Below, piece after piece: positions 3,709-52,700 of a DNA stretch of 64,000 nucleotides; within the stretch, counting starts at the first letter, position 1; each line of letters begins with the position of its first letter. The stretch lies in the IMG/VR virus record IMGVR_UViG_3300031952_004642, one strand, 5' to 3'. The stretch is from a virus. Its lineage: Duplodnaviria; Heunggongvirae; Uroviricota; Caudoviricetes. Under the pieces are notes generated by a model. The model was not told where the DNA came from. It saw only the letters and a program-made list of their open reading frames with translations, and did not search any database. The translations under genes were made by a program, and so were the position numbers.

Positions 3709-3743
3709 TATTCAAGTTGGTTCATGCCGATTTGATGGTGTGA

Positions 3744-4247: not shown

Positions 4248-4264
4248 ATATCTTCCTCCAATTT

Positions 4265-7050: not shown

Positions 7051-8244
7051 ATGGAAGTCTGGAGGGCATATCGATATCGGTTGTACCCAAAAAGGGAAAC
7101 TGAACAGAAGATGATTGATATCCTTGAAACATGTAGACAGACCTATAATGAAATGCTAAATATTTGCCAATCCACTTATGAAATGACTGGAAAGTGTTTA
7201 AATAGATTTGACATGAATCGATGCATAAATTATGGGATTGATACTGATATCTCTAAGGTCAATAGTCAAGTCATTCAGAACATCAATGATAGAATTGCAA
7301 AAGCATTTTCAAATTTCTTCAGAAGAATCAAAGAAAAACAGAAAGGTAAGAATATCGAAGTCGGCCATCCTAGATATAAGAATATCTGTAAGTCTTTCAC
7401 CTTCCCACGTACAGGATTCAGATTAGAAAATAATACTTTATTTATGTCGAAAATAGGCATTGTTCAAATTCACATCGGAAGGAAGCAAAATAAAGTACAA
7501 GGACATATTAAAACATTAACGATAAAGAGGGAACTGAACGGGAAATGGTTTGCCTGTTTCACATGCATCGTAAACATCAAGAAAAAACAGAAAGCCGATA
7601 ACAGGAAGATTGGAATCGATGTCGGCATTGAACATTTTGCAAACCTATCAGATGGAACGATGATTGACAATCCAAGATTCTTAATTCAATCAGAAAGAAG
7701 ACTGAAAATATTGCAAAGAAGACTTTCGATGAAAAGGCTTGGAAGCACGAATAGGAAAAAGGCAAGACTGAAATTCGCCATGTTACATGATAAAATATCA
7801 AACCAGCGAAAAGATTTTATTCATAAGTTAAGTTGTTATGTTGTCAAGAAATATGGAACAATCGCTATTGAAGACCTGAATATAAAATCAATGGTGAGAC
7901 ATCCGTATCTTGCCAAGCATATCTGCGATGCGTCTTGGGGAATGTTTGCAAATATGATTCGCTACAAGGCTGTAAGTGCTGGAGCGGAGCTTGTTGAAGT
8001 GAACCCAAGTGGAACATCTCAGAAATGCTCTCAATGCAGGAATGAAGTGCCGAAAACATTAGCACAAAGATGGCATATATGTCCGTTTTGTGGACTGAGC
8101 CTACATAGAGATTTGAATTCCGCAAGGAACATACTTACCGTAGGAACTACGGGAATTTACGCCTGTGGAGATGGGAGTTCTGCTCTTACATCACTTGAGC
8201 ATAGCCCGTCAAGGAATCAGGAAGCCATTCAACTTGTTGGATGA
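7051..8244 (+). CDS. tnpB: TnpB (OrfB) RNA-guided endonuclease, RuvC-like with C-terminal zinc ribbon
   Basis: 397 aa. C-terminal CSQCRNEVPKTLAQRWHICPFCGLSLHRDLNSARNI is the TnpB/Cas12 zinc finger plus RuvC-III motif. The central region has the typical OrfB_IS605 layout. Confidence 0.9.
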   Translation: MEVWRAYRYRLYPKRETEQKMIDILETCRQTYNEMLNICQSTYEMTGKCLNRFDMNRCINYGIDTDISKVNSQVIQNINDRIAKAFSNFFRRIKEKQKGKNIEVGHPRYKNICKSFTFPRTGFRLENNTLFMSKIGIVQIHIGRKQNKVQGHIKTLTIKRELNGKWFACFTCIVNIKKKQKADNRKIGIDVGIEHFANLSDGTMIDNPRFLIQSERRLKILQRRLSMKRLGSTNRKKARLKFAMLHDKISNQRKDFIHKLSCYVVKKYGTIAIEDLNIKSMVRHPYLAKHICDASWGMFANMIRYKAVSAGAELVEVNPSGTSQKCSQCRNEVPKTLAQRWHICPFCGLSLHRDLNSARNILTVGTTGIYACGDGSSALTSLEHSPSRNQEAIQLVG

Positions 8245-23718: not shown

Positions 23719-24105
23719 TTACCCCCTGTCAAAATGAAATTCTCTTCTACTGATTACTGGTTCACGCTGCCAGTTCTTCTCGAGCTTCTTCATGAAGATT
23801 TTACTGCCATCCACATCAAGAATGGCGAGCATGCTGGCAACGAAAAAGAAAATGTCGATGGCCTCTTCCGCAAGCTTCACCTTATCATTATGTTTGTAGG
23901 CGTGAACAAGCTCACCCAGCTCCTCGGTCATCCAGATGATTTTCTTTCCGAGCAGCTCATTTTCCGAGAGCCCGAGATTGAATCCTTTCGCTTCTTCGAG
24001 CTCATGGACGAGCTTCTGGGCATCACTGATTGTGACACCATTCACAGACAACAGTTTAAACCATTTATCGTAAAGCTTACCTGTCATTGGCACACCTATT
24101 TTCAA
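23719..24105 (-). CDS. MazG-like NTP pyrophosphohydrolase
   Basis: EELGELVHAYKH ... EEAIDIFFFVASMLAILDVD matches the MazG EExxE/D helices. Confidence 0.55.
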   Translation of the reverse strand: MKIGVPMTGKLYDKWFKLLSVNGVTISDAQKLVHELEEAKGFNLGLSENELLGKKIIWMTEELGELVHAYKHNDKVKLAEEAIDIFFFVASMLAILDVDGSKIFMKKLEKNWQREPVISRREFHFDRG

Positions 24106-25644: not shown

Positions 25645-26025
25645 TCATATGCGTTTCCTTATCATCTCATCGGCAAGCTTCATGGTCTGACGCTTCACAT
25701 GACCAAGCGTCTGGGTTATCGGATGCTCGCTATTCCATATATGTGTGGTATCAAAACCAAGAAACCAGAGACTTTTCGGTATGTCGCTATTCGGCAAATG
25801 GCCAAGCACACCAAAATAGGTCAATTCAACGGTTTTTATCCTATCAGTGAAAGCCCAAAGCTTTGCCAGATAATCTCTACGGCTCCTCGGAATGACGGAC
25901 ACATAGCCGTTGTAGCAAACACCATTCGGAGCAACACGCAACGGCACATTCACCAGTTTTACTATGACACACGTTCTGCGCCTGTAAATGAACTTCTCAG
26001 CAATTTCATCGGCGATATCACTCAT
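25645..26025 (-). CDS. Hypothetical protein (126 aa)
   Basis: Minus ORF, preferred over the antisense plus ORF 25531-26118. Confidence 0.4.
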   Translation of the reverse strand: MSDIADEIAEKFIYRRRTCVIVKLVNVPLRVAPNGVCYNGYVSVIPRSRRDYLAKLWAFTDRIKTVELTYFGVLGHLPNSDIPKSLWFLGFDTTHIWNSEHPITQTLGHVKRQTMKLADEMIRKRI

Positions 26026-26846
26026 TCATCAACCACCACCTGCTCAACTGGAACCTGCCTGTCTGGGAAAAGGCGATTATGCAGGGCTGGATTATTGTTT
26101 GAAGCGCACTCTTCCTGATAAGAGCAATATCTGCACTGCCATTTTTCACCTACAACTTTTGGCGGCAGCTTGGACTGCTGCAAATTGGAATTAATCATAT
26201 TCAGGTTCCGCATGACGCTGGCATGCATCTTCTCATCATATCCGAAACGGAAGGCACGCACTGCGAGGTCGGTCTTGTTGATATAGACAAGAAGGCCGTG
26301 ATGAAGGCCTTCGGAATGAAGGTAGGTATTGAGCTGGCATCGATGTGAATATGAAGCGGATTTCTTCATACCGAAGCCTTTCTCGTTGATGGATTTCAGC
26401 TCCACGACGAAAGGCTCGCCCTCATGAGGGACAACGATTATGTCCATCCTGCCGCTTATCACGATGCCAGTCTCCTTGTCGGTGAATTCAGTGCGCCTTT
26501 CCAGAATGACATCCTTGAACATTTTACCATGCTGACCGACAGCAGCCTTCTGCAAATAATCATGTATGATGCTACCAGCCATGAAGATTCTCTGGCTTTT
26601 CGGCGTGAAGGTTTTTGGGCTGATGAATGAATAGTAGACCTGACGATGGCATTTTCCCAAATCAGTCGCCCAGAAATGACCGATGATACGCTTACGCTTC
26701 TCCTGCTTTTCAGTGATATGCTCGTTCAGGAACGCATCGAAGTCGAAATCGGAAAAGCTCATTGGCATAGTCATCCTATCGATACTTTGACGCTTGTATT
26801 TAAATAGAAAATGAAAAAAATGGCGGCAACGCCGCCTGAAATCCAC
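26022..26846 (-). CDS. Cas4/RecB-family PD-(D/E)xK exonuclease with C-terminal Fe-S Cys cluster
   Basis: ATDLGKCHRQVYY; GRMDIIVV..VVELKS (D..ELK); QLNTY; C-terminal CRYCSYQEEC (Cx2Cx5C). Confidence 0.6.
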   Translation of the reverse strand: MDFRRRCRHFFHFLFKYKRQSIDRMTMPMSFSDFDFDAFLNEHITEKQEKRKRIIGHFWATDLGKCHRQVYYSFISPKTFTPKSQRIFMAGSIIHDYLQKAAVGQHGKMFKDVILERRTEFTDKETGIVISGRMDIIVVPHEGEPFVVELKSINEKGFGMKKSASYSHRCQLNTYLHSEGLHHGLLVYINKTDLAVRAFRFGYDEKMHASVMRNLNMINSNLQQSKLPPKVVGEKWQCRYCSYQEECASNNNPALHNRLFPDRQVPVEQVVVDE

Positions 26847-26853
26847 TCATTCA

Positions 26854-27429
26854 TCAGAATTCAACGATTGGAACGTCCTGAGCGCCTTCCTTGGACTCAA
26901 AGAAGAGCTTCGGCTTCATTCCCATCATGTTCGCAATCATGTTCGATGGGAAGACCCTCAAAGCGGTGTTGAATTCACGGACTACGCCATTATAGTCATT
27001 CCTCGCAACGGCAATCCTGTTCTCGGTTCCCTCCAACTGCACCATCAGCGTCTTGAAGTTCTCAACGGCCTTCAGCTCTGGATAGTTCTCCACGACCACG
27101 ATGAGCCTGCCAATCGCAGATTCAAGAGATGCCGATGCATCCATCTTCTCAGAAGGCGTTACCGCACTTCCCCACTGGCTTCTCAGCTCCGTGATTTCAG
27201 TGAGAAGACCCTTCTCGAATTCCATGTATCCCTTTGCCGTATTCACGAGATTTGGGATGAGGTCATATCTTCTCTGATACTGAGACTCGACATTCGCCCA
27301 CGCAGTCTGGGTCTTCACATCCAAGCTCACTAGGCTGTTGTAGATTCCGATATATATCACGGCAATGACCGCAATCACTATCAGAAAACCAAGCAAGACC
27401 AAAGTCACTGGATTAGTTTGCGCTTTCAT
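26854..27429 (-). CDS. lemA: LemA family protein
   Basis: N-terminal TM. QYQRRYDLIPNLV, ENYPELKA, VARNDYN, RVFP are LemA hallmarks. Confidence 0.85.
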   Translation of the reverse strand: MKAQTNPVTLVLLGFLIVIAVIAVIYIGIYNSLVSLDVKTQTAWANVESQYQRRYDLIPNLVNTAKGYMEFEKGLLTEITELRSQWGSAVTPSEKMDASASLESAIGRLIVVVENYPELKAVENFKTLMVQLEGTENRIAVARNDYNGVVREFNTALRVFPSNMIANMMGMKPKLFFESKEGAQDVPIVEF

Positions 27430-27634
27430 ATTTACCTCCTAATTTTATTCTGACAATAAGAATAATTAAAAAACAAATAAAGCACCCGACAGTCATGCCG
27501 AGCAGAGTCCTGAAAAGAGCATCTGCTATGCTGCAAGTCATTTTATTGGAAATGAGACATGCACAGGCAAAAGACCCCAAGAAAAGACCAAATAGCATCG
27601 ATAAAATCAGGCTAATCCTTGACATCATGGACAC
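27413..27634 (-). CDS. Small membrane protein (73 aa)
   Basis: Two TM helices. Overlaps neighbours by a few nt. Confidence 0.45.
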   Translation of the reverse strand: MSMMSRISLILSMLFGLFLGSFACACLISNKMTCSIADALFRTLLGMTVGCFICFLIILIVRIKLGGKYESAN

Positions 27635-29111
27635 CTCCGATTCTTATCTGACGGCACTCGATTAAATCTTTAGGCGAGCATCCAGCAGCACCACCACCAG
27701 CACAGGCACAGGCACAAGCACACGCACTCACACAGGCACAGGAAACGCACCCACCACCATCAGATGAGCCGCCGCCTGTCGAGCCTTCAGAGCCACCACC
27801 ACCAGAAGACCCACCACCGAGATGGTTTATGGCATATGCAGATGAATGGCCAGTCGACGCAATCCATGGATAGAAGATGAACCATGTCAACAGGAAGTCG
27901 TCCTCATCCTTCTTTTTCTTCTCATCGAATTCCTTCTCCTGCCCGAGGCGCTTGGCCTTAATCAGGTCGAACATGCCCTTGTCAAGCCAGATTCCATTAC
28001 ATCCGCTGCAACCATATAACACAAGACCTTCCTTGTGGGTGGCCTTGATTTCAGTACCATTGCATCTCGGGCATTTCGATACATGCTTCCAAGGTGTCAC
28101 GGTGGATTTCACATCAGCATCGAAAACAGCCCAATCGCTCTCCTTGGCTTCTTGTTTGACGAGAGACTCGATTTCACCTTTGTCGAACCAAGCACCACCG
28201 CAGACCGCACAACCATTTATGACAACGCCTTTCACATATTTCCTGTTGATAGGAGAGCCGTCCCTCGGACACTTCATGTTTATATTCCTGACTACAGGGT
28301 CGTCCTCGTAATCTTCGATATGGCTTCCGAGAGAGATGGATGGTGAATCATAAGATTCACTTTTTCCAAGTCCCGTCGCAAATCGCAAGATAACATAAGA
28401 AAGACAAGCAAGCAAACCGATTAGAAGCATTAACGGTATCACATCATTGCTTATGTCAGGAACAGAACCAACAGAATTATCAGAAGGCTGGAGATTTGTA
28501 AACGCCTCGACGGGCATCCTCATCCCGACAGTTTTCTTGTCCCCACGACCAACGTTCTCCCATTCCCATATGACCTTGCCCTCTTTGAATACGGTCGGCT
28601 GGGAAGATGTTATAACAGAAGTGACATTCGTATCATTGGAGATTTGCATGATGACGGAAAGGAACTTGGTCTGAGCCCTGTCCCACCATGATGGAGTGAA
28701 CTGGACAGTGGCATTGCCGTCATAAAGGTAGACGAAATTATGCTGAGTGGCTTTGAAGGTGAACTCAGAATGCTGGCCCGCATAGATGGTATCGGATAGC
28801 TCGACGTACACGCCAGACCAGCCCATCTTGTCGTCATGGCGCACCGAAGAGGCGGAACCACCCCATTCGATTATCTCATAGTCAGCGGTCGGGAGACCAA
28901 TCATGACCCAAGGGATGTTTCCAGAATCGCACTGGATATCAACAGTATATCTGATATCGGCATCACCATTAGAATGGATTGTCAGCTCAGCGATTTCACG
29001 GTTGATTGTATAAGTGCCAGTGTCAGCGAGCACTGAAGACACGGACAGCGCAAAGATGAGCAGCAGCGTGCCCAAAATGACCAGATTCATGTCAAAATCC
29101 ACCATCAGCAT
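27612..29111 (-). CDS. DUF2207/TPM-like membrane protein with two zf-TFIIB-type zinc ribbons and Gly/Ser then Cys/Ala low-complexity tail; start probably at an internal Met near 29111 or 29090
   Basis: Signal/TM at the N-terminus, about 250-aa ectodomain, TM. CPRDG..CAVCGGAWFDKGE and CPRCN..CSGCNGIWLDKGM match the CPxC..CxxCxGxWxDxGE pattern. Tail GGGSSGGGGSEGSTGGGSSDGGGCVSCACVSACACACACAGGGAAGC. The ORF-table start at 29249 overlaps the rSAM gene by 145 nt. Confidence 0.6.
   Translation of the reverse strand: MLMVDFDMNLVILGTLLLIFALSVSSVLADTGTYTINREIAELTIHSNGDADIRYTVDIQCDSGNIPWVMIGLPTADYEIIEWGGSASSVRHDDKMGWSGVYVELSDTIYAGQHSEFTFKATQHNFVYLYDGNATVQFTPSWWDRAQTKFLSVIMQISNDTNVTSVITSSQPTVFKEGKVIWEWENVGRGDKKTVGMRMPVEAFTNLQPSDNSVGSVPDISNDVIPLMLLIGLLACLSYVILRFATGLGKSESYDSPSISLGSHIEDYEDDPVVRNINMKCPRDGSPINRKYVKGVVINGCAVCGGAWFDKGEIESLVKQEAKESDWAVFDADVKSTVTPWKHVSKCPRCNGTEIKATHKEGLVLYGCSGCNGIWLDKGMFDLIKAKRLGQEKEFDEKKKKDEDDFLLTWFIFYPWIASTGHSSAYAINHLGGGSSGGGGSEGSTGGGSSDGGGCVSCACVSACACACACAGGGAAGCSPKDLIECRQIRIGGVHDVKD
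27682..27745. repeat. GCACAG/GCACAC microsatellite-like tract encoding (Cys-Ala)n
   Basis: CACAGGCACAGGCACAAGCACACGCACTCACACAGGCACAGG inside the 3' end of gene 27612-29111. Confidence 0.6.
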
Positions 29112-30418
29112 CTCCTCTCTATTTTGCGATAGCTGAGCGGGCATCCGCCGCCGCATTCCTCGAAATCGAAACAGGATTCGCATTCCTTGGGAGCAAACCC
29201 ATGAGACCTCAGCTTCACGGCAAGCTTGGAATTCCACATCGATTCCCATGAATCGGTCAGGATATTCCCAAGATTCTCATGAGTCCAAGACTGGCAGGGA
29301 ATGACATTCCCATTCGGCTCAATCATCATGTTCACGGAACACGCAGAGCAGGAACGGATACCGAACCCGAGCTTCATCGGATTCAGATTCTTGTAGCATG
29401 TAGGCAAGAACCAGTTGAACGAGACCCCGCCATTTTCGGCGACCTTCTTGGTATTCTTCAGAATCTTGGCAAGAGTGCTTTCGGGAACAGAGTTCACCTG
29501 CATCACATTCGTGGCATCGCCCGAATTGATGAGGGCATTGCAAGAGAACTGCATGACTCCAAGAGATTTACCGAACCGAATCAGGTCGCAAATCATATGA
29601 AAATTCGCATTTGTGATGGTCGTGTTGATGCTCACATCAAGACCAGCATCAACGCAATTCTGGATGCCATGGATAGTCTGTGCGAACGCACCAGCCCTCC
29701 CGACCATCTCATCATGGATGTATGGGTCTGATGATTCGAGCGTTACCTGAACCCAATCGACCTCGGCCACCCTGAGCTCATCAGCGAGCTTTTTGGTAAT
29801 CCGAGTGCCATTGGTTATCACACCGACTGAGAATTTCCTCGCAAATCCTGCGAGCTCTGGAAGGTCTTTCCGCAGGGTGCATTCCCCACCAGTGAAAACA
29901 ATTTGAGGGATTCCTATTTCCCAGAGCTTCGTGATGACCTGCTTCCATTGCACAGTAGAAAGCTCATCAGAGGTCACCTTCCTCGATTCTTTCGAAAGGT
30001 AGCAGTGAGGACACTCATTGTTGCATGAATATGAAAGAGAGATGTCCATCCGATTAGGAGCTTTCCTGTCATTCGGATTGACATATTTCATACCGACAAG
30101 GTTCTCAGGAATCTTGCCAGCAGCTACAGAATTTATGATTCCGAGAAGCTGATTAAGGTCTTGCTTGACACTCACATAACCGACTTTATATTTGCGCACC
30201 ATCTGCTCGACTACCCTGTCCTCGATACCAGAATCAGAAACATAACAAGAATCGATGAAACGGCTCAGAAGCTCCGTCGCAGAACGATTTAGAAAAAGAA
30301 CGAAAGTATTGTTGACCCAGAGCTTGCCCTCATCGGTGCGCAGGTGAAGCCTGACACCATCCACAGTCACATGCTTGAGGACTGCATCCTTCTCAAATAT
30401 TCCACGACGCAAGTTCAT
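29105..30418 (-). CDS. Radical SAM enzyme with C-terminal SPASM domain and about 130-aa N-terminal extension (RRE-like), peptide-maturase-like
   Basis: CNNECPHCY (CxxxCxxC); GGECTL glycine-rich SAM motif. C-terminal SCSACS ... PCQS ... CESC..ECGGGC is SPASM/twitch. Confidence 0.8.
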   Translation of the reverse strand: MNLRRGIFEKDAVLKHVTVDGVRLHLRTDEGKLWVNNTFVLFLNRSATELLSRFIDSCYVSDSGIEDRVVEQMVRKYKVGYVSVKQDLNQLLGIINSVAAGKIPENLVGMKYVNPNDRKAPNRMDISLSYSCNNECPHCYLSKESRKVTSDELSTVQWKQVITKLWEIGIPQIVFTGGECTLRKDLPELAGFARKFSVGVITNGTRITKKLADELRVAEVDWVQVTLESSDPYIHDEMVGRAGAFAQTIHGIQNCVDAGLDVSINTTITNANFHMICDLIRFGKSLGVMQFSCNALINSGDATNVMQVNSVPESTLAKILKNTKKVAENGGVSFNWFLPTCYKNLNPMKLGFGIRSCSACSVNMMIEPNGNVIPCQSWTHENLGNILTDSWESMWNSKLAVKLRSHGFAPKECESCFDFEECGGGCPLSYRKIERRC

Positions 30419-30576
30419 CCATCAACACCCGTCGGATTTTCACCAATCTTCTTGTTCCAAGCCTGATGATTCATGATGAGCTGGTCAACAGCTTGATACA
30501 TATGTTTGAAATCATGCAATCTCATGAACTTGTGAAGCCATGTATATGCATCAGGAGTTACTAGAATTTTCGGCAT
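30418..30576 (-). CDS. Unlisted 53-aa ORF MPKILVTPDAYTWLHKFMRLHDFKHMYQAVDQLIMNHQAWNKKIGENPTGVDG, candidate substrate peptide
   Basis: ATG at 30576 overlaps the TPM stop (TGATG). Its TGA overlaps the rSAM ATG (ATGA). Translational coupling on both sides. Confidence 0.35.
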
Positions 30577-31268
30577 CACAAATCACCCTCCGAGCCGCCA
30601 CCACCTGAGGAACCACCGCCGAGCGAGCGAGCGCCTAGGCTGAAACCCAGAAACAGAAGGCTTTCCGCACCAATCAGAAAAAGAACCACTATGATAATAA
30701 TTATGATTATCACAACCCACACCAACTGCTCCCAAGTGAATTCGAAACCGCCTATGCCGATAGTCTCGACTACAGTCTCATTGCCGACAAGCATGCCTGA
30801 AATCTCACCGTATGTAGACAGCAGGCCTTCACAGAACATGTCCTTGGAAGCTGATGGTTTCAAGTAATCATCAGCAAGGCGCAAAGTGTCAGCATCTGTT
30901 ATGTCGCCCTCAAGGCCATATCCGACCTCAAACCTGTATTTCCTGACATCCGAAACGATGAGAATCAGCAGACCATTGTTCTTATCACGCTCACCTATCC
31001 CAGCTTCACGGAAAAGACCATTCGCATACTCACTGAGGTCGGAATCGCCGATAGTTGGGATGGTCACGGTCACGATTTCGGCAGTGGTCTTGTCATCTAT
31101 ATTTTTGGCGATGGTTTCGAGCTGGTTTTCGCATGGTGTGTCAAGAATTCCAGCATAGTCGTTGATATATGGTTCGACGACTGGATATTTAACGGCACTG
31201 GCAGCAACGGAAAGCAGGACAGATGCTAGGCATAAAAACAGCAACATTTCAAGAGCATTTTTCAGCAT
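30576..31268 (-). CDS. TPM-domain (YgcG-like) membrane protein
   Basis: Signal peptide. YINDYAGIL ... EIVTVTIPT ... YANGLFREAGIG ... NGLLILIV ... RFEVGYGLEG. C-terminal TM of VVIIIIIIIIVV. Gly-rich tail GGGSSGGGGSEG. Confidence 0.8.
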   Translation of the reverse strand: MLKNALEMLLFLCLASVLLSVAASAVKYPVVEPYINDYAGILDTPCENQLETIAKNIDDKTTAEIVTVTIPTIGDSDLSEYANGLFREAGIGERDKNNGLLILIVSDVRKYRFEVGYGLEGDITDADTLRLADDYLKPSASKDMFCEGLLSTYGEISGMLVGNETVVETIGIGGFEFTWEQLVWVVIIIIIIIVVLFLIGAESLLFLGFSLGARSLGGGSSGGGGSEGDL

Positions 31269-31297
31269 TTCATCACACTATTACAATTGATGTTAAG

Positions 31298-31323
31298 ATA
31301 TTTAAAGTTTCGATAGTTTACGG
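31298..31323 (-). promoter_or_regulatory. BRE/TATA promoter-like element for the TPM operon
   Basis: Minus strand reads CCGTAAACTATCGAAAC-TTTAAATAT about 30 nt upstream of ATG 31268. Nearly identical to the element at 32499-32524. Confidence 0.4.
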
Positions 31324-31511
31324 ACGCTCTTATTCCCCCAGCGAGTGGGTTGAGCAAGAGTATGAGCCCCGAAGGGTCGACAACTACGCCGAAGCGCTTG
31401 TGGTTATCTCCTGCTGAATGAAACTAAGCAGGCAGGAATCTGATTGAGGTCTTATATCTGCCGAACGCCTCGGCGGAATCCCGCCCGCCGCTGTTTAGGG
31501 AAGATGTGAAA

Positions 31512-32480
31512 TCATTTCTTCTTTCCGCTCATCGGTATCGGCGTAACGCCCGCCGCATCGGAAATGACATTCACAAGGCTCACTTTCGCTGGGACGATTA
31601 TCTTGGTTCCACGCTTCAGCGCATTCTGGGCAGTCTCCAGCTTCTTGAATGTCACTGCCTCATCCTTGAAATATTTCTGGATTGAAGTGTTCACGGTCTG
31701 GATGGCCTTCGCCTGCCCCTCAGCTTCAAGGATTGTAGCCTGCTTCTTGCCCTGTGCTATAAGTATCTGAGCCATCTTATCACCCTGAGCGGATTTGATG
31801 TTAGCACGACGTTTGCCATCCGCTTCAGTTTCCGCAGCGGTAGCCAAGTCCAGAGCAGCCTTCTTTGTGTTCTCGGCCTTGTTCACGTTGTTCATGCTAT
31901 CCTGAACGTCCTTCGGTGGCCTAATCTCCTTGATTTCGGCCCGCACGATTTCCAGACCCCAAGGCTTCGCTTCCTTTGCCAGCAGATTCTGCAACTTGGT
32001 GTTTATCTCGTTCCTCTTGCAATTGGCATCCTGATACGACATGTTGCCGATGATGTTCCTCAGCGTGGTCTTCGCAAGGCTCGTAATCTGATAGCGGTAA
32101 TTGCTCACATTATATTGGGATGCCTTCACAGATGTCTCATCGGGCTTGACCTTGAAATAAACCTGAGCATCGATGGTCGCATTCAGCCTGTCCTTGGTGA
32201 TTATCTCCTGCGCTTCCAAGTCCTCAATCTGCTCAGTTATGTTAACTTTAATCATCCTTTCCAAGAACGGGATTATCACATGGAACCCTTGGTCGGAAAG
32301 GCGCTTATATTTTCCAAGACGCTCAACTAAACCCTTCTCGGTAGGGCGCACAACCCGAATGCCCATGAAAAAGATAACGCATAAGATGGCCAGCAATCCA
32401 AGAATGCTCATCCATTCTCCGATATAGAAAAGAAATACAGATAACACAAACAGCACGATGACGGATATCAGGCCTTTCAT
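31512..32480 (-). CDS. SPFH/band-7 (stomatin/prohibitin-like) protein
   Basis: N-terminal TM. VRPTEKGLVERLGKY..G.H.IIPF .. ITKD .. IDA.VYF .. LAKTTLRNIIG .. WGLEI..VEIKEI.PP. Ala/Lys-rich coiled-coil tail. Confidence 0.85.
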   Translation of the reverse strand: MKGLISVIVLFVLSVFLFYIGEWMSILGLLAILCVIFFMGIRVVRPTEKGLVERLGKYKRLSDQGFHVIIPFLERMIKVNITEQIEDLEAQEIITKDRLNATIDAQVYFKVKPDETSVKASQYNVSNYRYQITSLAKTTLRNIIGNMSYQDANCKRNEINTKLQNLLAKEAKPWGLEIVRAEIKEIRPPKDVQDSMNNVNKAENTKKAALDLATAAETEADGKRRANIKSAQGDKMAQILIAQGKKQATILEAEGQAKAIQTVNTSIQKYFKDEAVTFKKLETAQNALKRGTKIIVPAKVSLVNVISDAAGVTPIPMSGKKK

Positions 32481-32498: not shown

Positions 32499-32524
32499 AG
32501 CTTTATAAAGTTTCGATAGTTTAC
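32499..32524 (-). promoter_or_regulatory. BRE/TATA promoter-like element for the SPFH gene
   Basis: Minus reads GTAAACTATCGAAAC-TTTATAAAG 21-30 nt upstream of ATG 32480. Directly abuts the transposon end. Confidence 0.4.
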
Positions 32525-32541
32525 GGCTTTGCACTTAAAGT
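32525..32541. repeat. Left 17-bp terminal inverted repeat of the transposon
   Basis: GGCTTTGCACTTAAAGT, identical to the reverse complement of 35958-35974. Confidence 0.8.
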
Positions 32542-32611: not shown

Positions 32612-33469
32612 ATGAAAAATACAATTTTTAATATGCCATTAGATTTTAGTCAGGCTTACTTTCAGGGAGAATTGGAGAAGAAAGTGAGAAACTTTGAAAA
32701 GATAAGAAAAACAACAGTATTATTATTCAATGCTGATATGGAACCTCCTGCTGTAGATTGGATTTGTAATATGGTAAGAAAGAGAAAAATTAAGGGGGGT
32801 GTTGATTTTTTCATTGAATCTGCTGGGGGTGATTTGGATTCTGCTTATCATATTGGCAAATTACTCCAAGAAAGTGTAAAGGGTAAGCTCACATTTATTG
32901 TTCCAAGGTATGCGAAGAGTGCAGCGACTTTGTTGTGTTGCGCTGGGGATGAAATAATAATGACGAGAAAAGCGGAATTGGGACCATTAGACCCACAAAT
33001 TAGGCTTAAAGGTGAAAGGTTTTCGGCTCTTGCAGTAAAAGCTGCATTGGGTCTTATTAATCAGAATTATACTGATAAGAAAACCAGTTTGGCAAACAAA
33101 CTTGCGACACTTTTGCCTTCACCCTTAATGCTCGGCGAACTTGATAGGTCATTGGAGATTTCTAAATCTTATTTAAATAAACTTTTGATGGGTAGAATGT
33201 TCAGAAACGGAAACAACAAGAAAAAAGTAAATGATATATCAGAAAAGCTTGCAAAGAAATATACTCACCATTTATATGTAATAAATCATGAAGAGGCAAA
33301 AAATGAGTTAAAACTGAAAGTAAGATTACCGAGTCTGAAGGAAAACGATTATATTTATGAGATACACAATCTTCAAGCGAAGATTAATGAAATCAGGGTC
33401 ATTCAAAAGAAATTATCCGAACACGCATTGATGAAACGTATTATAAACAAAATGGATGTGAATTTATGA
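32612..33469 (+). CDS. ClpP/crotonase-fold serine protease of the SDH (serine dehydrogenase proteinase, S49-like) family
   Basis: GGVDFFIESAGGDLDSAYHIGKLL ... TFIVPRYAKSAATLLCCAGDEIIMTRKAELGPLDPQI matches the family core (fIhSpGG ... vP..A.SAgTliAlaaDeIvM...A.LGPiDPQ). Confidence 0.65.
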   Translation: MKNTIFNMPLDFSQAYFQGELEKKVRNFEKIRKTTVLLFNADMEPPAVDWICNMVRKRKIKGGVDFFIESAGGDLDSAYHIGKLLQESVKGKLTFIVPRYAKSAATLLCCAGDEIIMTRKAELGPLDPQIRLKGERFSALAVKAALGLINQNYTDKKTSLANKLATLLPSPLMLGELDRSLEISKSYLNKLLMGRMFRNGNNKKKVNDISEKLAKKYTHHLYVINHEEAKNELKLKVRLPSLKENDYIYEIHNLQAKINEIRVIQKKLSEHALMKRIINKMDVNL

Positions 33470-33832: not shown

Positions 33833-35062
33833 GTGGTATTAAATATGGTGATAAATATAACTCAAAGAGAGATTAAGGGGTTCCAAATCGCCCAGAACGG
33901 AAGGATAGCCGAGACGCCGAAGGGCTGGATAGTCCCTTCGCAGAGCGGTAACGGCTCTTATCTGGTCTACAAGGACGGATTCCAGACAAGATGCACCTGT
34001 CCCGACAGCGAACTTAGAGGGGCAGAATGCAAGCACCAGATAGCCGTCAAGCTCTTCTACCACGAAGTCGAAGACGGACAGGGCAACGTAACGGTCACGA
34101 AAACCGTAAAGGTCACATATCCGCAGGATTGGAAAGCCTACAACGAAGCCCAGACCTCGGAAATACGCCTTTTTGATGCTCTCCTGAAGGATTTGGTGGC
34201 TGGAATCGAGGAACCAAAACAGGAGAAGGGCAGACCCAGATTAAGCCTTCAGGATACCGCCTTTTGTGCCATCCAAAAGGTCTATTCCCAGCTATCCCAG
34301 AGAAGGGCTCATACGCTTTATAGAAACGCAGAGGGGAAGCAACAGATAGGGCATTCCCCACATTTCAACGCAGTGGGTAAACTGCTTAACAGGACTGATA
34401 TAACGCCGACATTATACAACCTTTTATCGGTCTCCGCTTTGCCATTGAGGGGCTTAGAGACCACATTCGCCCCCGACAGTTCCGGTTTCAGGACAAGCAA
34501 ATTCGGGCAGTATGCAATCGAGAAATACGGCATCATGCGTAAGCACAAATGGGTCAAGGCTCACATTCTGACCGGAACCAAGACCAACATCATAGCATCA
34601 GCGAGGATTACAGAGGAGAACGGAGCGGATTGCCCCCAGTTCGAGCCTATGGTTTCCGAAGCCCACAACAACGGTTTCACAATCAAGGAAATACCGGCAG
34701 ATATGGGCTATTCAAGCCGGGAGAACTACAACCTCGCAACGAGCATAGGGGCCAAGGCTTACATACCATTCAAATCCAATTCAACCGGCAAATCCAGAGG
34801 CTCCTACACATGGATGAAGGCATACCATTATTTCATGCTGCATAGGGACGAATTCATGGAACATTATCACCAGAGGAGCAACGTGGAATCAGCCTTCAAC
34901 ATGGTAAAGGCGAAGTTCGGCGACAAGCTGAAATCGAAGAATTGGATAGCACAGCAGAACGAACTCCTATGCAAGCTCATTTGCCATAATATCGTGGTGC
35001 TAATACATGAAATGTATGAATTGGGAGTAAAACCGGATTTCTCAGTTAATAGCGTCAATTAA
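33833..35062 (+). CDS. IS4/IS5-family DDE transposase with N-terminal SWIM zinc finger
   Basis: CTCPDSELRGAECKHQ is a SWIM CxCx(n)CxH. ADMGY carries the second catalytic Asp. YHQRSNVESAFNMVKAK gives an exact Y-x2-R-x3-E-x6-K signature. Confidence 0.85.
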   Translation: MVLNMVINITQREIKGFQIAQNGRIAETPKGWIVPSQSGNGSYLVYKDGFQTRCTCPDSELRGAECKHQIAVKLFYHEVEDGQGNVTVTKTVKVTYPQDWKAYNEAQTSEIRLFDALLKDLVAGIEEPKQEKGRPRLSLQDTAFCAIQKVYSQLSQRRAHTLYRNAEGKQQIGHSPHFNAVGKLLNRTDITPTLYNLLSVSALPLRGLETTFAPDSSGFRTSKFGQYAIEKYGIMRKHKWVKAHILTGTKTNIIASARITEENGADCPQFEPMVSEAHNNGFTIKEIPADMGYSSRENYNLATSIGAKAYIPFKSNSTGKSRGSYTWMKAYHYFMLHRDEFMEHYHQRSNVESAFNMVKAKFGDKLKSKNWIAQQNELLCKLICHNIVVLIHEMYELGVKPDFSVNSVN

Positions 35063-46346: not shown

Positions 46347-47252
46347 TTATTTTCGAGTCAGGTACATAACGTTCTTATCGAAGGCGAAACATAATTCACC
46401 TTTTTCATAAAGATGACTTACGAAACCGCTAATCACGGTCTTCATCAACACATACCGCTGGAGACTGTCTATTGGCGCACTGTAGCCATCACAAACAGTC
46501 CTCAGCAAATCATCGAAAGTCATCTTGCCCCGAAGAGAATTCCTCACATAATCCTCGACCGAATCCACGACTTCCTCATGGGCGGAAACAACGCTGGCGA
46601 TATCACCGAAAGGCTCGCCATGGGATGGCACATAAAGCTGGTAGTCGCTCTGGCGAAGCCATTCAAAGGTCTTCCTCGTTGAGCCGATGTCCATGTAAAA
46701 AGGTATCTTATGCTTCGCCAAGACCTCTTCTCCAAAAACACTATCAGCGCAGAACAGGACATTCTTGCCGACACCAATCCCGATTTGATTCGGACTATGG
46801 CCCTGCAAAGGAACGACATCAAGAAGGTAATCATGCCACATGAAACGACCAGCAGGCAGGACAGCAACATTGCGGGTCGGCTGGGCCTGAAGGAACTTGT
46901 TCCTCAGCTCTTTCGGGACATCTGGCGAACCGAAAAGGTACATCGGCTCGAGTTCTGGTGATGAAATCAAAGCAGCCTCGACATCGGGAGCCAAGAAGGC
47001 CATTTGAGGATGGACACGCTGCAAATAAGCGTTGCCGCCGCAATGGTCAGCATGATGATGCGTGCTTATGACGGTATGCAGACCAACATTCTTCCCGACA
47101 GCAATCCTGTCGATTTTCTTGGCGGCATCATCATCAAGCCCGCTGTCAATCAGAAGAGCATCACGGTCTATGCAGACCAAGCCAACGTTAGTATGCGAGG
47201 CTAGGTAATAAACTCTCCCCTTTCCAGTCGTCTGAATATCACTGAGTTCCAT
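46347..47252 (-). CDS. MBL-fold metallo-hydrolase
   Basis: VISTHHHADHCGGN is the HxHxDH motif; later His/Asp ligands are present. Confidence 0.8.
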   Translation of the reverse strand: MELSDIQTTGKGRVYYLASHTNVGLVCIDRDALLIDSGLDDDAAKKIDRIAVGKNVGLHTVISTHHHADHCGGNAYLQRVHPQMAFLAPDVEAALISSPELEPMYLFGSPDVPKELRNKFLQAQPTRNVAVLPAGRFMWHDYLLDVVPLQGHSPNQIGIGVGKNVLFCADSVFGEEVLAKHKIPFYMDIGSTRKTFEWLRQSDYQLYVPSHGEPFGDIASVVSAHEEVVDSVEDYVRNSLRGKMTFDDLLRTVCDGYSAPIDSLQRYVLMKTVISGFVSHLYEKGELCFAFDKNVMYLTRK

Positions 47253-47256
47253 ATTA

Positions 47257-48666
47257 TCACACCAGAGTATAACAATGCTTCATCTTCGGCTCGATGCGAC
47301 CATCGACCAACTGCGCAAACAGGCCATCGGACATCACCAGAGTCTTAGGTGATTTAGCGAGTTCGGCAAAGAGCTTCACCTTATCAGGCAGCAAAAAGTT
47401 CTCAGTCCCACAGCCAGCCGCATGATATGTATTATGCAACCAGCTAGCCTTGCAGACGCACCCACCAGCACACGAAGGCAGGAAGATATGCCTCGAGCAT
47501 TGGTCAATCATCGTCGGGTCACGTTTCAGCACATCACCATAGACGGCTGTCTTAGTGAAAACACCATTATCAGAAAGCGTTCCAACCACATGCTTCTTCT
47601 GGCCAACGAGCTCCCAGCATTTATAGACATCCCCGAACGGGTCAATGATATAAGAGCCATCAGCAATGCTGGAACATGGTAACGCCTGAGGCGAAGGCCT
47701 GATATCAAGCCTGAAGCCCCTCTCATGTGCAGCACGCCACAATTCTGGCATCACGCTGAAAAGCTTTGTATCAGGGATGACATGATTCTTGTATGCATCA
47801 CAGGCCTCAGTGAAGGCAGTTATATAGCAGAAATCAGTGTAGATATGAGTCAAGTCCTTCGATTTCAACTGGTCAAGCATATTAATCATCGTAGGGTAGG
47901 TCTCATTAGTGAGGCTTATCCTTATGTGAGTCTCTACGTTCGTGCCCCGAACGAAAGAAAGCACACCATCCGTCACATCATCGAACGAGCCCCTCTTATC
48001 CTTCACATAAAACCTCATCTTGTTATGCATGTCCCTATCACCATCGATGGGCACTTGCAGCCTCATCCTGAACTGGTCAGCCCATTCGATGAATTCTTTG
48101 GTAATCAGGGAACCGTTAGATAGCATCTGCAACTTGAATTTCATGCCAACATCATTAACCCATTCACTGAGCTCATCTGTCGTTCGCATCGCATCATAAG
48201 CTCTCAACATTGGCTCACCACCGTAAAGGATGAGCTCCAGAGTCTTCGGATTGCGCTCAAGCACAGTCATCTTCACGAATTCCTTGAAAGAAGATATCAT
48301 AGACGGACTCATTGACTTGAAACCATGAATCTTCTTTCCGGCTTCACCACGGCCCTGATAGCAATATGGGCATGCGAAATTGCAGTCATAAGTCAACAGC
48401 ATGTTGAACTCGACCTTCTCTTTTCCAGATTTCCAGTGGTTATGGATGCCCCTGTATACAGCAAGCTCATCTGTATCAGGCGAGACAAGAAACCCCTGCT
48501 CATGCATAATCTTCTCGAGGTCGGCATCGAGGTTTTTCGTGTTCAGGTCAGCGACGAACTTTGAATTGCATCTCAATATCGCACCCGAGAGCGTGTTGTA
48601 AATCAGAACCAGATTAGTGCTCGATGGAACCGTGAGATTATACCTCGAAGGCTTCAGCTTTCTCAT
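47257..48666 (-). CDS. Radical SAM/SPASM-domain enzyme (peptide-maturase-like); start likely Met-15 at 48666
   Basis: CNFACPYCY; GGEPML. C-terminal CSSIADG..CWEL ... CSRH..CAGGCVC. N-terminal YNLTVPSSTNLVLIYNTLSGAILRCN is an RRE-like leader-binding region. TTTATAAAC lies 23-31 nt upstream of that Met. Confidence 0.8.
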   Translation of the reverse strand: MRKLKPSRYNLTVPSSTNLVLIYNTLSGAILRCNSKFVADLNTKNLDADLEKIMHEQGFLVSPDTDELAVYRGIHNHWKSGKEKVEFNMLLTYDCNFACPYCYQGRGEAGKKIHGFKSMSPSMISSFKEFVKMTVLERNPKTLELILYGGEPMLRAYDAMRTTDELSEWVNDVGMKFKLQMLSNGSLITKEFIEWADQFRMRLQVPIDGDRDMHNKMRFYVKDKRGSFDDVTDGVLSFVRGTNVETHIRISLTNETYPTMINMLDQLKSKDLTHIYTDFCYITAFTEACDAYKNHVIPDTKLFSVMPELWRAAHERGFRLDIRPSPQALPCSSIADGSYIIDPFGDVYKCWELVGQKKHVVGTLSDNGVFTKTAVYGDVLKRDPTMIDQCSRHIFLPSCAGGCVCKASWLHNTYHAAGCGTENFLLPDKVKLFAELAKSPKTLVMSDGLFAQLVDGRIEPKMKHCYTLV

Positions 48667-48750
48667 TATGATTAATTTCATAGTAAGATTTATAAACTTT
48701 CGCACCAATTTACATTTTCACTATATACAAGTCCAACAGTTAACTGTTAT

Positions 48751-49782
48751 TTAGTATTTAGCACCAAGGAAGCTTTTGATAGCTCCACCGAAGAAATAGA
48801 CGAGAGCAAGCACGACAAAAACGACACCTATAGCTAAAATGAACACAGTGACTGGCTGGGTGATTCCAGTCAGGAAACCCGATATCCCATATCCTACAGA
48901 AGTGAGCATCTGAGTCATCGGCATCTCCTCGAGGATTTCCGCAGAGACATCATAGCCGCTTCCAGAATCAGCAAGGACATTCGGCATTACGATGAACGCA
49001 AATAAGAACGGAAGCAGAATGGAAATATAGCCAACACCATGCCTGAAAGACTGATTCGCTGAACGCTTCCATCTGACGAACATCAGGCAAGCCGCACACA
49101 TGATTACGATTAAAGCTCCAGCAATAAAAAAGACGGCCCCATCATTTCCACTGGAAACTGGTTCAGGCTTTGGCGGCACTGGAAAGCTCGTCACGACCGC
49201 TGGCTCATAGAAGCCCGCACCCAGTTCATTATCCGCATAACGGAATGATGTCATAGGCTGGCCAGTTGCCTTGAGAACCGCATGGATATCATTCGTGCCG
49301 ACCTGATTCTGCTGGCCAACGACAATAGCCATCCAACCCCTGATGCCTTTCTTGAGAACGACATTCTTGGCTGTCGCCTTATCGACATACGCAACCTCGA
49401 AAGGAACATCTGCGAAATCACCGACAGCATAGTGGATATCATCAGGCAGCATTATCGTGAATGTCATTTTCTTGGAGCTGAACGGCGCAACTGTGACCAT
49501 CTGGCTTTCCAAGTAGATAAGAGGCGATTCGACCAGAATCGCAACATCAACAGGATTCTCGCCATTGTTCTGGAGCTCGAAAGACCAGTAATGAGGGCTG
49601 CCTATCTCATTGAGAGGCACATAAACGACCTTTTGGCCATAGTATTCAACGAGCCCGAGACCAAACGCAGAGCCGCTCAACAACACCCAGACAAACGATG
49701 CCATCAGGGCTAACCTGATACCAGCGTTAATCACCTGAGTCCTCGCTTTAGGAGGAGATATACCATTCCTGTCCGACATCAT
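48751..49782 (-). CDS. Membrane protein (343 aa): signal/TM, ectodomain, C-terminal polytopic segment
   Basis: Hydropathy pattern. Its start overlaps the giant-gene stop by about 35 nt. Confidence 0.55.
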   Translation of the reverse strand: MMSDRNGISPPKARTQVINAGIRLALMASFVWVLLSGSAFGLGLVEYYGQKVVYVPLNEIGSPHYWSFELQNNGENPVDVAILVESPLIYLESQMVTVAPFSSKKMTFTIMLPDDIHYAVGDFADVPFEVAYVDKATAKNVVLKKGIRGWMAIVVGQQNQVGTNDIHAVLKATGQPMTSFRYADNELGAGFYEPAVVTSFPVPPKPEPVSSGNDGAVFFIAGALIVIMCAACLMFVRWKRSANQSFRHGVGYISILLPFLFAFIVMPNVLADSGSGYDVSAEILEEMPMTQMLTSVGYGISGFLTGITQPVTVFILAIGVVFVVLALVYFFGGAIKSFLGAKY

Positions 49783-52700
49783 TCACGTACACCTGCTTGG
49801 CTGTTTCTGAAGGCAGAGCTGACGGGTCTATTCCGAAGTACAAGGTCAGCAGACCAGTGCCCGACCCACGCCTGTCGAGATAAGCGCCATCGATGACAAC
49901 GGCAATCCCATCCAATAGTCCAGTTGAAGTTGCCCATATTCCGGTAGGCCCAGCCTTGAAGACATTCCCATCCACTGGCAGCAGATAAGTCGGCTGGCTG
50001 ACACCAACGAGACTATAGGCGGTTATCGTTATGTTTGTCTGGTTCACATTGCCAGTGTTCCTGAGAGTCACATAATCAGGGAAAGTCGGGCCATCATTTA
50101 ACATATATGAACCGAAAGAGATGGTGCTTGTATCGCTGACCCAAGCCTTCAGCTCATTGTAAGTCAGGCTGCCGATTAGCGATGTGTTGCACAGCAGGCC
50201 CAAATCACACACATGAAGCTCGGCTGCCCAGATTCCAGCAGCATAGTAATACTGCATCGGCAAAGTGCATTCGAACCTTCTGGCAGTCGCACTGATGTTG
50301 TAATTCCTGCACGAGGAATTGATAACGCTCTCGGAGCCTTTATATATTTTCCCATAATGCACTGCGCCAGTCACGCCAGACACATCATCCGCACTGAAGT
50401 TGACCGACACATACACAACAGAATCCTCGAGTGGAGTCGCAATCGGCTGCACTGACACATCATAAATGAATGGTGGGCTGGTATCAACCTTGAACATCAC
50501 ATCAACACTCTTCACATTGAATGCAGTGTCGTTGGCAGTTACCCTGAGATAGTATGTACCATCTGGAAGGCCCGTCGCCACGAAATTGAAATCAGTCAGG
50601 TTGCCAGTGTTGTTGAATCTGGAATCATTGATGAACACCAAATCGAGATGAGCATCATACACAACACCGAATATTGTCACATTCCCGACTGGATAGACAG
50701 TGCCATTGACTGGATAATATACATCAACAACGGGCAGCGAATTATCATCATCCTCCCAGATGTTTGGATTCGTACCATAAAAATTAATCTCCTGACCATC
50801 AGTGAACCCACCCTCATCGGTGTCTGCACTGAACGGATTCGTGTAATAAGTGAACAGCTCAACGAAATCAGTCAGATTGTCAGAATCGGAATCCATGCCC
50901 TGCAAGGTCGCATTATCAGGCAGGTTGAATATCACGAATGCCTGCTGGTATCTGCCGAACATGACATTTGTCCACATCGCATCAAGATGCAGTCCATAAT
51001 CATAAATATCATCATCCGAAGTGAATTGAATCTCAGAAAATTCCTTGAAATATACACCAAGACTCTCAGGATATGTCGCATTGAAGATATTCGCAGCAAC
51101 GCCCTCAATCACATCATTTTCCTGAGTCAACATTGTCGACGGGTTCGCATGAAAATCCCTTGTCATGGCGTTAAGGTCATACTGCCAACTGAAAATCGCA
51201 TTGTAATCCATAACGTAATTCTGAGCATGCCAGAAGTATATGCTCCACCAGCTATCTGAATGCCAGTAATGGGTATAATAGTTCCTGATTCCATTTGAAG
51301 GGATGATAGTCTCATTCCACCAGAAATCCAAGAATGCAAAACAGTACCTGTACTGGTCAGTCCCTTCTGGAGAATCAGCATTGAAACCATCAACAGGCTG
51401 ACCGCCATAAGGTATCTCCTCGCCAGACGGCAGGCGAATCTTGTTCTTGTCAAAAGTATGGACACCCCTTGTCGGATTAAGGACACCAGTATCGAAAGAC
51501 TCACCATTCCATATCCCACCCCTGAACAGCTCACCAGCATCATAAAGAGTGCCAGACCTTTCAGGGCCGAGTCCAGACTCACGGCCACCACCATAATATT
51601 CCACCATCATGCATTCATAGAGGTCTCCACCAGATTCGATGCACCACCTATAGACGGAATAATTGAACCTCGGCATTCCTTCCATGTAAAGAAGCTTGTA
51701 TTCCAGAGGCTCTGGAATGCAACCAAATGAAACGTATTTGCGCTCATTCTGATTCGGCTGGTTGAGCGGATGACTCAAGCTCGGCTTAGTCCAGTTTATC
51801 ACCATCATCGTATCATTCCAGACCTCGAAAGTGTACCAGCTCTGGACGAGATTCTCCTTTTCTATATACCACATATCTGAAGTGTTGGACATCGACTCAA
51901 AAGCCCAGACAGTCCCGTTCCACCATCTCAGACGAAGATTACCAGAGCCAGTCACATTGGTCTCTATCCATATGGAATCCTCACGCTGGCAGGAACCTTC
52001 CCTATACCCAGAGCAGAGCCTGACCCTGTTGTCATCATCATCAGTAATCGGACTGCCAGCAAAGCAGAATTCTGGAACCCTGAACTCATTCTCATACGCA
52101 TCGGAATATCCAGTTGACTGGTCACCCTCGGCAACAGCCCTGTAAAAGAACGTTTTCCCATAAACTACTGGAACAATGAAACAACTAACCATTGGAGCAG
52201 ACACGATTCCAGTCACCTTGCTGGACTCATTGAAAAACTCATTCAAAGTGTCCTCTTCCCAATACTGGAAATACAGGTCAACAGTCTGAGAATCTGCATC
52301 AGTCAGGTTGAGACAGACAGTCACCTGCTCATTCGGTCTGTCCTCTGTATAATTCAGGAATTCAACAATCGGAACGGAAGGCAGGCTGCCAAGCGTTATG
52401 TTGGCATCAGCATATCCACAGGTTTCTTCAGCACCCGAAACACAGGACATTGCACGTATATAATAAGTTGAATTTTCCTGAAGACCTGAAATATTGAACT
52501 TCGGGATTGCGGACTCATTGAAATAACCAGTCATATTCTCACCAACGAACCACGGATTGAACGAATACCTTACCCAGTTATCAGAGGTCGGGTCAACATC
52601 CCATGAAACATTTATGGCAGTATCGTTTATCGCCTCAACCGTAAGATTAGATAAAACAGCCAACGGGTATTCGAGTTCAATTTCAGGGCCGATGGTCACA

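Follow-up and report, generated by a model that had tools for sequence, protein, structure and literature searches.

Genes of the cassette

The stretch of DNA analysed here (the window) comprises 64,000 nucleotides of the IMG/VR virus record IMGVR_UViG_3300031952_004642, and our subject is a cassette within it in which a radical S-adenosylmethionine (rSAM) enzyme with a SPASM domain adjoins a membrane protein that ends in a (Cys-Ala)n tail. Coordinates are window positions, the cassette genes all lie on the minus strand, and Pfam matches of their products are counted above gathering cut-offs. Read along that strand, the cassette encodes an SPFH/stomatin-family membrane protein of 322 amino acids (aa) (31512..32480; PF01145 Band_7, 130.6 bits against a cut-off of 23.6, E = 8.7e-38), then a TPM-domain membrane protein (230 aa; 30576..31268; PF04536, 105.4 bits against 22.1, E = 2.7e-30) with a signal/anchor, a TPM ectodomain, a transmembrane (TM) helix and a Gly-rich tail, a 53-aa open reading frame (ORF; 30415..30576), the rSAM enzyme (437 aa; 29105..30418; PF04055 and PF13186), the tail protein (497 aa; 27612..29105; two Zn_ribbon_TFIIB domains, 64 bits), a small TM ORF called at 70-73 aa (27413..27634, with a start at 27634 or 27625) and a LemA-family membrane protein (191 aa; 26854..27429; PF04011, 191.7 bits against 26.2, E = 8.2e-57). 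On the LemA protein the MamQ model scores 101 bits, under its cut-off of 250. The small TM ORF is poorly conserved, with 37% identity and a ratio of nonsynonymous to synonymous substitution rates (dN/dS) of 0.33 relative to the related element L003, and a Pfam search gave it no family.

From TPM through LemA, start and stop codons overlap at each junction. TGATG is common to the TPM and 53-aa ORF genes, ATGA to the 53-aa ORF and rSAM genes, and TGATG again to the rSAM and tail protein genes; the tail protein gene overlaps the TM ORF by about 20 nt, and the TM ORF overlaps LemA by 17 nt. Upstream of these genes, the 21-mer CCGTAAACTATCGAAACTTTA occurs in exactly two copies in the window, where none would be expected by chance. 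One copy (32506..32526, minus strand), followed by the TATA-like TTTATAAA, precedes SPFH, and the other (31303..31323, minus strand), followed by the TATA-like TTTAAATA, precedes the TPM-to-LemA operon, so placed that 21-mer and TATA-like box sit 30-40 nt upstream of both start codons. Since both carry an element otherwise absent from the window, SPFH and the six-gene operon are probably co-regulated. The 240-nt spacer between SPFH and TPM (31324-31511, minus strand) contains GC-rich self-complementary stretches, e.g. GGCGGGCGGGATTCCGCCG, which could be a terminator or a structured RNA.

An earlier note on this DNA had listed the same minus-strand genes, the overlapping junctions and a promoter copy shared by the operon and SPFH, and all of these were recovered. 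The Zn-ribbon membrane gene of that note, our tail protein gene, is present as well, but its proposed start at 29249 is replaced: a start at 29105 (MVDFDM...) overlaps the rSAM stop codon, agrees with the gene calls on the same element and is most likely correct.

The radical-SAM enzyme

The enzyme combines an rSAM core (PF04055, 88.7 bits against a cut-off of 29.5), whose CX3CX2C motif (C132/C136/C139) is invariant among 73 homologues, with a SPASM domain (PF13186, 40.7 bits against 21.5). Tested for the motif of auxiliary 4Fe-4S clusters, CX9-15GX4C ... CX2CX5CX3C, the domain shows it at C357, G370-X4-C375 and C413-X2-C416-X5-C422-X3-C426. In the same 73 homologues C357, G370-X4-C375, C422 and C426 are invariant, C413 and C416 are conserved in at least 90%, and the domain should hold two auxiliary Fe-S clusters. 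The final, seventh SPASM cysteine varies across the family, in which no extra Cys ligand upstream of the SPASM motif is fully conserved.

Ahead of the core lies an N-terminal extension of about 100-115 aa that aligns throughout a large family of these enzymes. It had been described in the earlier note as an extension of about 130 aa resembling the recognition element (RRE) of enzymes that make ribosomally synthesised peptides with post-translational modifications (RiPPs); the type of domain has held up, and the length has been shortened. PF05402 (PqqD, which has the RRE fold) matches 28 of the 73 family members, with a best E value of 1.8e-8. An AlphaFold2 model of the window enzyme, predicted with high confidence (pLDDT 92.9, pTM 0.91), places strands at 14-42 and helices at 45-58, 65-77 and 81-99 of this domain, at pLDDT >90. 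When the model was searched with Foldseek, SkfB was the best match (1.7e-19) and SuiB aligned over its full length, its RRE included; anSME was also matched, and the core fits rSAM structures. A profile search of the PDB returned SkfB (3e-35), then PqqE, SuiB and CteB. By family profile and predicted fold, the N-terminal domain is assigned as a PqqD-like RRE and is predicted to bind peptide.

None of the NCBIfam equivalogs (PqqE, MftC, AlbA, SkfB, StsB, NirJ, AhbC/D, ScmE/F, GeoRSP, HxsC and others) reaches its cut-off on this enzyme. All 64 matches fall far below theirs, the best being NirJ2 with 136.7 bits against 500, and three distant members of the family likewise lie below every equivalog cut-off. 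Because no equivalog comes near its cut-off, the enzyme belongs to no named subfamily, and a search of Pfam and NCBIfam for a family covering either the tail protein or this rSAM subfamily found none. With its relatives among SkfB, SuiB, PqqE and CteB and PF05402 in its family, the enzyme resembles RRE-rSAM-SPASM maturases of peptides or proteins; a cofactor or lipid subfamily devoid of an RRE, the opposite outcome that had been considered, is not what was found.

The tail protein

The tail protein of the window is predicted to run from a signal/anchor through a beta-sandwich ectodomain, a TM helix, two cytoplasmic Zn ribbons, a WFIFYPWI helix and a Gly/Ser linker to the (Cys-Ala)n tail. The proposed core substrate, CVSCACVSACACACACAGGGAAGCSPK, is encoded at 27669..27749 (minus strand), within the C-terminus. 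The tail block reads CVSCACVSACACACACAGGG and its Cys-Ala motif CACACAGGG; it is of the form CxxCACVSxCACACACAGGGAAGCxPK and holds eight to ten cysteines in C-x-C spacing. Across the family the tails follow one of two general forms, ...CAC(V/A)(S)CACACACAGGG(A/G)AGCx(P/R/K)K or ...CACACAGCACACAGGGR directly before the stop codon.

Among the 1095 homologues detected for the tail protein, the top 120 include 119 with this tail, either exact or slightly altered. In our alignment A3, the mean column identity is 36% and the tail is the most conserved block and accounts for most of the invariant and near-invariant columns, with invariant ones at C456, C462, A463, C466, A467, C474 and K477 and with flanking Cys, Ala and Gly positions conserved in at least 90%. 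The codons within the Cys-Ala block vary (tgt/tgc; gcc/gct/gcg), so that the constraint on the tail acts at the level of the protein. A second assembly of the same element in ENA (L001) aligns with the window over 21.3 kb with 0 mismatches and a single 6-nt indel, at window positions 27699-27722, which drops one Cys-Ala unit in the comparison. This indel in the tail repeat is the only polymorphic site between the two assemblies, and may reflect slippage in the repeat, polymorphism in the population or an error of assembly.

AlphaFold2 predicts the beta-sandwich ectodomain, the TM helix and the two Zn ribbons confidently and leaves the tail disordered (pLDDT 30-44). Hydropathy and charge counts put a Lys/Arg-rich side downstream of the second TM helix, which together with the Zn ribbons implies that the tail is cytoplasmic. 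A tail so placed, and disordered as predicted, is one that a cytoplasmic rSAM enzyme would be able to reach.

The label "DUF2207/TPM-like" that had been given to this protein is not borne out by its sequence, as PF09972 (DUF2207) gives no match even at E<=1. A score above the DUF2207 cut-off is reached only by the protein of locus L010, a distant relative that bears the tail and that phmmer links to the window protein at 9e-11. The layout, with signal, ectodomain, TM helix and Gly-rich C-terminus, is nevertheless DUF2207-like.

Co-occurrence of enzyme and tail across genomes

We collected 92 homologous loci, 80 of them genome loci from a scan of one genome per GTDB species, each a different species representative. 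The rSAM gene adjoins a gene on the same strand for a (Cys-Ala)n-tailed protein in 83 of the 92 loci, among them 72 of the 80 genome loci. Of the nine loci without such a neighbour, five, all among the eight genome loci concerned, are cut by a contig end. The tail gene lies downstream of the rSAM gene in 23 loci and upstream in 60, and that the gene order flips yet the adjacency stays argues for a functional pair. When the 8229 ORFs of 40 aa or more that these loci contain were searched, the tail motif matched just one other, a spurious antisense ORF in L005. Adjacency to a Cys-Ala-tailed membrane protein holds for rSAM homologues at 83%, ~55%, 52% and 40% identity. The archaeal carriers include Thermoplasmatota, Bathyarchaeia, Heimdall-, Hod- and Promethearchaeota and Methanosarcinales, and the bacterial ones many Chloroflexota, Krumholzibacteriia, Zixibacteria, Acidobacteriota, Coatesbacteria, Nitrospirales, Planctomycetota and others. 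The pairing is thus widespread and strongly conserved, and apparently unnamed.

The association was also seen from the side of the tail protein: three of three tail proteins chosen regardless of rSAM have an rSAM/SPASM gene directly upstream, with TPM and LemA immediately downstream. In an acidobacterial locus (L025, 9275-12312), one rSAM gene is followed by three tandem tail-protein paralogues with near-identical tails and then by LemA. A search of a phage collection matched only a human faecal "Bacteriophage sp." scaffold (L093, MT837216.1), in which a 33%-identical rSAM gene is followed by a gene for a protein ending ...SSCACACASSCACACACAGGGRAGCSVK (2440-5087), so that human-gut sequence has the pair too. 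A scan of IMG/VR with the rSAM alignment found one distant locus only, too little to confirm a viral origin of the element.

Four architectures can be told apart, for which we coined the letters A to D. Type A (the window, related elements and Thermoplasmatota) has the tail gene downstream, two Zn ribbons in the protein and a tail of the form ...SCACVSCACVSxCACACACAGGGAAGCxPK, followed by ~15-20 more residues. Type B (Dehalococcoidia, Krumholzibacteriia, Zixibacteria, Acidobacteriota, Bacillota and Methanosarcinales) likewise has a downstream tail gene, here for a protein of 310-400 aa ending in ...SCACACVSCACACACAGGGGAGCxRK..C..C. The tail gene is upstream in type C (Bathyarchaeia and others; ~530 aa), where the protein terminates with ...SCVCACAxCACACACVSCACACAHGGAR, and in type D (Chloroflexota, Heimdallarchaeota and others; ~550 aa), where it terminates with GGGCACACACAGCACACAGGGR.

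Type B loci show the order rSAM, tail protein, TPM, LemA, which was confirmed with Pfam in L024 and L016, and this operon recurs chromosomally in bacteria and Methanosarcinales; the first locus of the reciprocal test lies amid the housekeeping genes MreB, NusA and ClpB of a bacterial chromosome. Of the 92 loci, 11 have TPM and 10 have LemA, and in every one of these the tail gene lies downstream of the rSAM gene. Given this recurrent four-gene operon, the window cassette can be read as a variant of it in which two small element-specific ORFs have been inserted and TPM has been moved to the front. The neighbourhood comparison suggested in the earlier note therefore yields the combination of rSAM with LemA/TPM, in the type B loci and in the three reciprocal loci, which supports the cassette as a functional unit and leaves no room for its description as a one-off insertion of an rSAM gene into a LemA/TPM trio. 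Types C and D differ in their surroundings. Upstream of the tail protein they encode a small TM and Zn-ribbon protein (42 loci), reminiscent of the fused Zn ribbons of the type A protein, and downstream of the rSAM gene a class-I methyltransferase (40 loci). In one type D locus (L063, 9320-10486) a second, degenerate rSAM/SPASM-like ORF stands between the rSAM gene and the class-I SAM methyltransferase gene. The methyltransferase and the degenerate ORF hint at further tailoring steps, absent in the window. Genes of the SPFH type occur near the module in separate lineages, as Band_7 in L001-L005 and as Band_7_1 in L010, L032, L051 and L059.

A proposed maturation of a membrane protein tail

Taken together, these results make it likely that the rSAM enzyme, guided by its putative RRE, acts on the membrane protein beside it and matures that protein's cytoplasmic (Cys-Ala)n tail. 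We infer that the tail is the substrate from adjacency, from tail conservation, from domain content and from the predicted topology; both co-occurrence with a maturase and conservation of the core, as expected of a RiPP-like substrate, are found for the tail. What the earlier note had offered as an aside, that the (Cys-Ala)n tail might be modified, is now strongly backed by comparative genomics (83/92 loci, 119/top 120 tails). The enzyme would dock through its RRE onto the C-terminal region of the tail protein, and 5'-deoxyadenosyl radical chemistry would then modify the (Cys-Ala)n-GGG block, which would remain on the protein. The matured tail protein would act at the membrane with TPM and LemA and, in the virus-like element, also with the co-regulated SPFH/stomatin scaffold.

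The nature of the modification and the role of the matured tail at the membrane are proposed with less assurance. By analogy, the chemistry would most likely consist of intramolecular thioether cross-links from Cys sulfur to a carbon of neighbouring Ala or Gly, because the putative substrate is rich in Cys, the relatives of the enzyme are cross-linkers and no extra Cys ligand before the SPASM motif is fully conserved. Two precedents may serve as leads only: in CteB, the substrate Cys is bound at the open iron site of auxiliary cluster I, and sactionine links to the alpha-carbons of Gly or Ala are known. Epimerisation of alternate residues or oxidation of Cys may be the chemistry instead.

Enzymes of this kind are familiar. 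RRE-bearing rSAM/SPASM maturases are known for small secreted peptides, and the pairs SkfB/SkfA, AlbA/SboA and CteB/SCIFF share with the cassette an RRE (or N-terminal domain), rSAM and SPASM arrangement with a Cys-rich substrate gene next to it. The sactipeptide and ranthipeptide maturases are the best PDB matches by both sequence and fold, and the proposed thioether mechanism is theirs. The window enzyme nonetheless lies outside both the AlbA model (100.6 against a cut-off of 850) and the SkfB model (87.5 against 300). Furthermore, the substrates of those maturases are free peptides of 40-60 aa, whereas the candidate here is the tail of a membrane protein whose size ranges family-wide from ~320 to 650 aa. 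Unlike those systems, the homologous neighbourhoods show no conserved protease or exporter near the rSAM gene, which fits modification of a protein better than that of a secreted peptide. In QhpD/QhpC and anSME, as is proposed here, an rSAM/SPASM enzyme acts on Cys of a protein that retains the modification. The product of QhpD is a set of Cys thioether cross-links, QhpC is a small soluble subunit, and anSME works on C/S-x-P/A-x-R without an RRE. The enzyme studied here has no sequence-level membership of either group, and the substrates and motifs differ. For an alternating Cys-Ala core, we know of no counterpart. The kind of maturase is therefore known; the substrate class, the core motif and the membrane context are new.

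The neighbourhood has a literature of its own. LemA-DUF2207 pairs form a recurrent neighbourhood, and LemA may act in membrane restructuring (PMC12631010); a DUF2207 mutant of Streptococcus mutans has defects in how it tolerates stress and forms biofilms (PMC12631010, PMC10457818). LemA and TPM of the cassette are bona fide members of this LemA/DUF2207/TPM neighbourhood by Pfam, while the tail protein fails PF09972. Our literature search found no description of the trio with an rSAM enzyme or a (Cys-Ala)n tail, no paper describing the pair of rSAM and tail protein and no DUF2207 paper mentioning radical SAM. One candidate, PMC9431491, was set aside, as it covers unrelated Methanococcus rSAMs.

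Alternative explanations

Several observations weigh against the tail as a substrate. The N-terminal domain of the window enzyme itself has no direct PF05402 match; the tail gene is missing next to the rSAM gene in three loci with intact flanks (L026, L039, which is the contig of L012, and L065); and adjacency speaks for a functional linkage that need not be one of enzyme and substrate. To these may be added that eight to ten tail cysteines in C-x-C spacing could bind a metal or an Fe-S cluster. The tail might accordingly be a metallothionein-like or cluster-carrier-like binder and its protein a scaffold, a donor of clusters or sulfur, or a regulator, with the rSAM enzyme acting on a lipid, a cofactor or some other protein. 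The membrane proteins that make up the operon neighbours would suit such a role, as would the methyltransferase added in 40 upstream-type loci and the matches of the enzyme to NirJ, AhbD and MoaA, cofactor enzymes that all score far below their cut-offs. We regard this explanation as unlikely, though still plausible: the enzyme has a predicted peptide-binding domain of the RRE type, its best matches are peptide cross-linkers, and the Ala, GGG, AG and K positions of the tail are near-invariant, which is more than metal ligation needs. Much less probable is the earlier suggestion that the Gly-rich GGGSSGGGGSEG tails are modified. An identical 12-residue motif, GGGSSGGGGSEG, is indeed present in both the TPM and the Zn-ribbon proteins of the window, but TPM is missing from most loci (present in only 11/92), and between family members the Gly-rich linker differs in both sequence and length, in contrast to the Cys-Ala block.

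The earlier headline, that the 53-aa ORF between TPM and rSAM is the modified peptide, has fared worst. The start and stop codons of this ORF overlap its two neighbours, and it is under purifying selection (dN/dS 0.145 relative to the copy in L003), as a precursor gene might be. The encoded protein, however, lacks Cys and shows no recognisable core. Apart from the element of the window (L001/L002), only L003, a close relative, carries the ORF; none of the other homologous loci examined has it, including L004, L005 and L008, where rSAM identity is ~55%, and the cellular loci, so that the gene-neighbourhood check for a conserved small ORF beside rSAM went against it. When 1.84 billion representative proteins were scanned in full with HMMER, one real homologue was returned besides the ORF itself, the 149-aa protein P0242, in which the corresponding segment forms the N-terminus and is fused to a MazG domain; the other non-self match was a spurious TPR match. 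The MazG domain of P0242 resembles the stand-alone MazG/PRA-PH-like gene of the window (23719-24105, minus strand), and the fusion and this gene together suggest that, in these elements, the 53-aa module is an accessory domain subject to shuffling. By its sequence and distribution the ORF is a real accessory gene and not the substrate of the rSAM enzyme, and, with Pfam searched at E<=10 as well, it was rejected as a RiPP precursor; there is hardly any likelihood left for that role. Equally improbable is that the cassette represents a known type of anti-virus or inter-element conflict system. Its position in a mobile virus-like element beside a Cas4-like nuclease could be taken that way, but PADLOC gave no system-level match, only generic similarity of the rSAM core to pVip and a Cas4 match for the neighbouring nuclease, and the same operon occurs among MreB, NusA and ClpB in a bacterial chromosome. 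The reading of the cassette as a defence system was therefore dropped.

Modification of the Cys-Ala tail by the adjacent rSAM enzyme could have wider consequences. What seems to be modified here is the tail of a protein integral to the membrane, for which more than 1000 homologues were found, and the alternating Cys-Ala core of that tail is conserved across bacterial and archaeal phyla. If the proposal is true, radical-SAM chemistry would gain a new class of substrate and probably also a new modification, and biochemistry would for the first time have a way into the LemA/TPM/DUF2207 membrane genes, which are widespread but obscure in function; a virus-like element would moreover carry such a maturation system together with an SPFH scaffold. 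More tentatively, and with somewhat more doubt than confidence, we can envisage an undescribed system of many bacterial and archaeal groups in which a dedicated RRE-rSAM-SPASM enzyme acts on a DUF2207-like membrane protein and builds its invariant cytoplasmic (Cys-Ala)n tail into a structure of a new kind, borne by the protein and needed for LemA/TPM/DUF2207 complexes to function, and which archaeal virus-like elements have captured with an SPFH scaffold to remodel host membranes. The new structure could be a ladder of thioether rings or a membrane-inserting segment of alternating D and L residues.

Element context and neighbouring genes

The window matches part of a 106-kb metagenomic contig of the same element. 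Its context is virus- or plasmid-like, with a YopX protein, a MazG-like protein, a Cas4-like nuclease and a phage-type "topoisomerase" family protein, and almost all genes lie on one strand; no capsid or terminase was found among the 20 proteins scanned. Ten tRNA matches are clustered at 207-2518 (minus strand), in which ARAGORN identified Gly-GCC, Gly-TCC, Glu, His, Pro and Tyr. The Rfam tRNA matches at 207-327, 1400-1510 and 2377-2518 are long enough to hold introns, which suggests that the element is archaeal in origin.

Next to SPFH, on the plus strand, lies a gene for an NfeD/SDH-type ClpP-like serine protease (32612..33469; PF01972, 3e-14; NfeD1b_N, 2.4e-5). This resembles the stomatin-NfeD operon pair, in which SPFH stands beside such a protease gene, except that the two genes are divergent here and that SPFH shares its 21-nt element with the TPM-rSAM-LemA operon. 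The protease is likely the partner of SPFH and lies outside the rSAM module proper. The classic stomatin-NfeD pairing (32612-33469, plus strand; 31512-32480, minus strand) is here found on a mobile element, and a DDE_Tnp_1 transposase gene (33833-35062, plus strand) lies beside it. Directly downstream of LemA is the gene for the Cas4/PD-(D/E)XK-like nuclease (26022-26846, minus strand), and an IS605-type OrfB/TnpB transposase is encoded at 7051-8244 (plus strand). Finally, a second, unrelated radical-SAM gene (47257-48708, minus strand; phrog_1802) sits beside a gene with a metallo-beta-lactamase fold (46347-47252), and shortly upstream of the two stands a 3100-aa ORF for a lectin-domain protein, its domain being a ConA-like Laminin_G_3 (region 46347-59050, minus strand).

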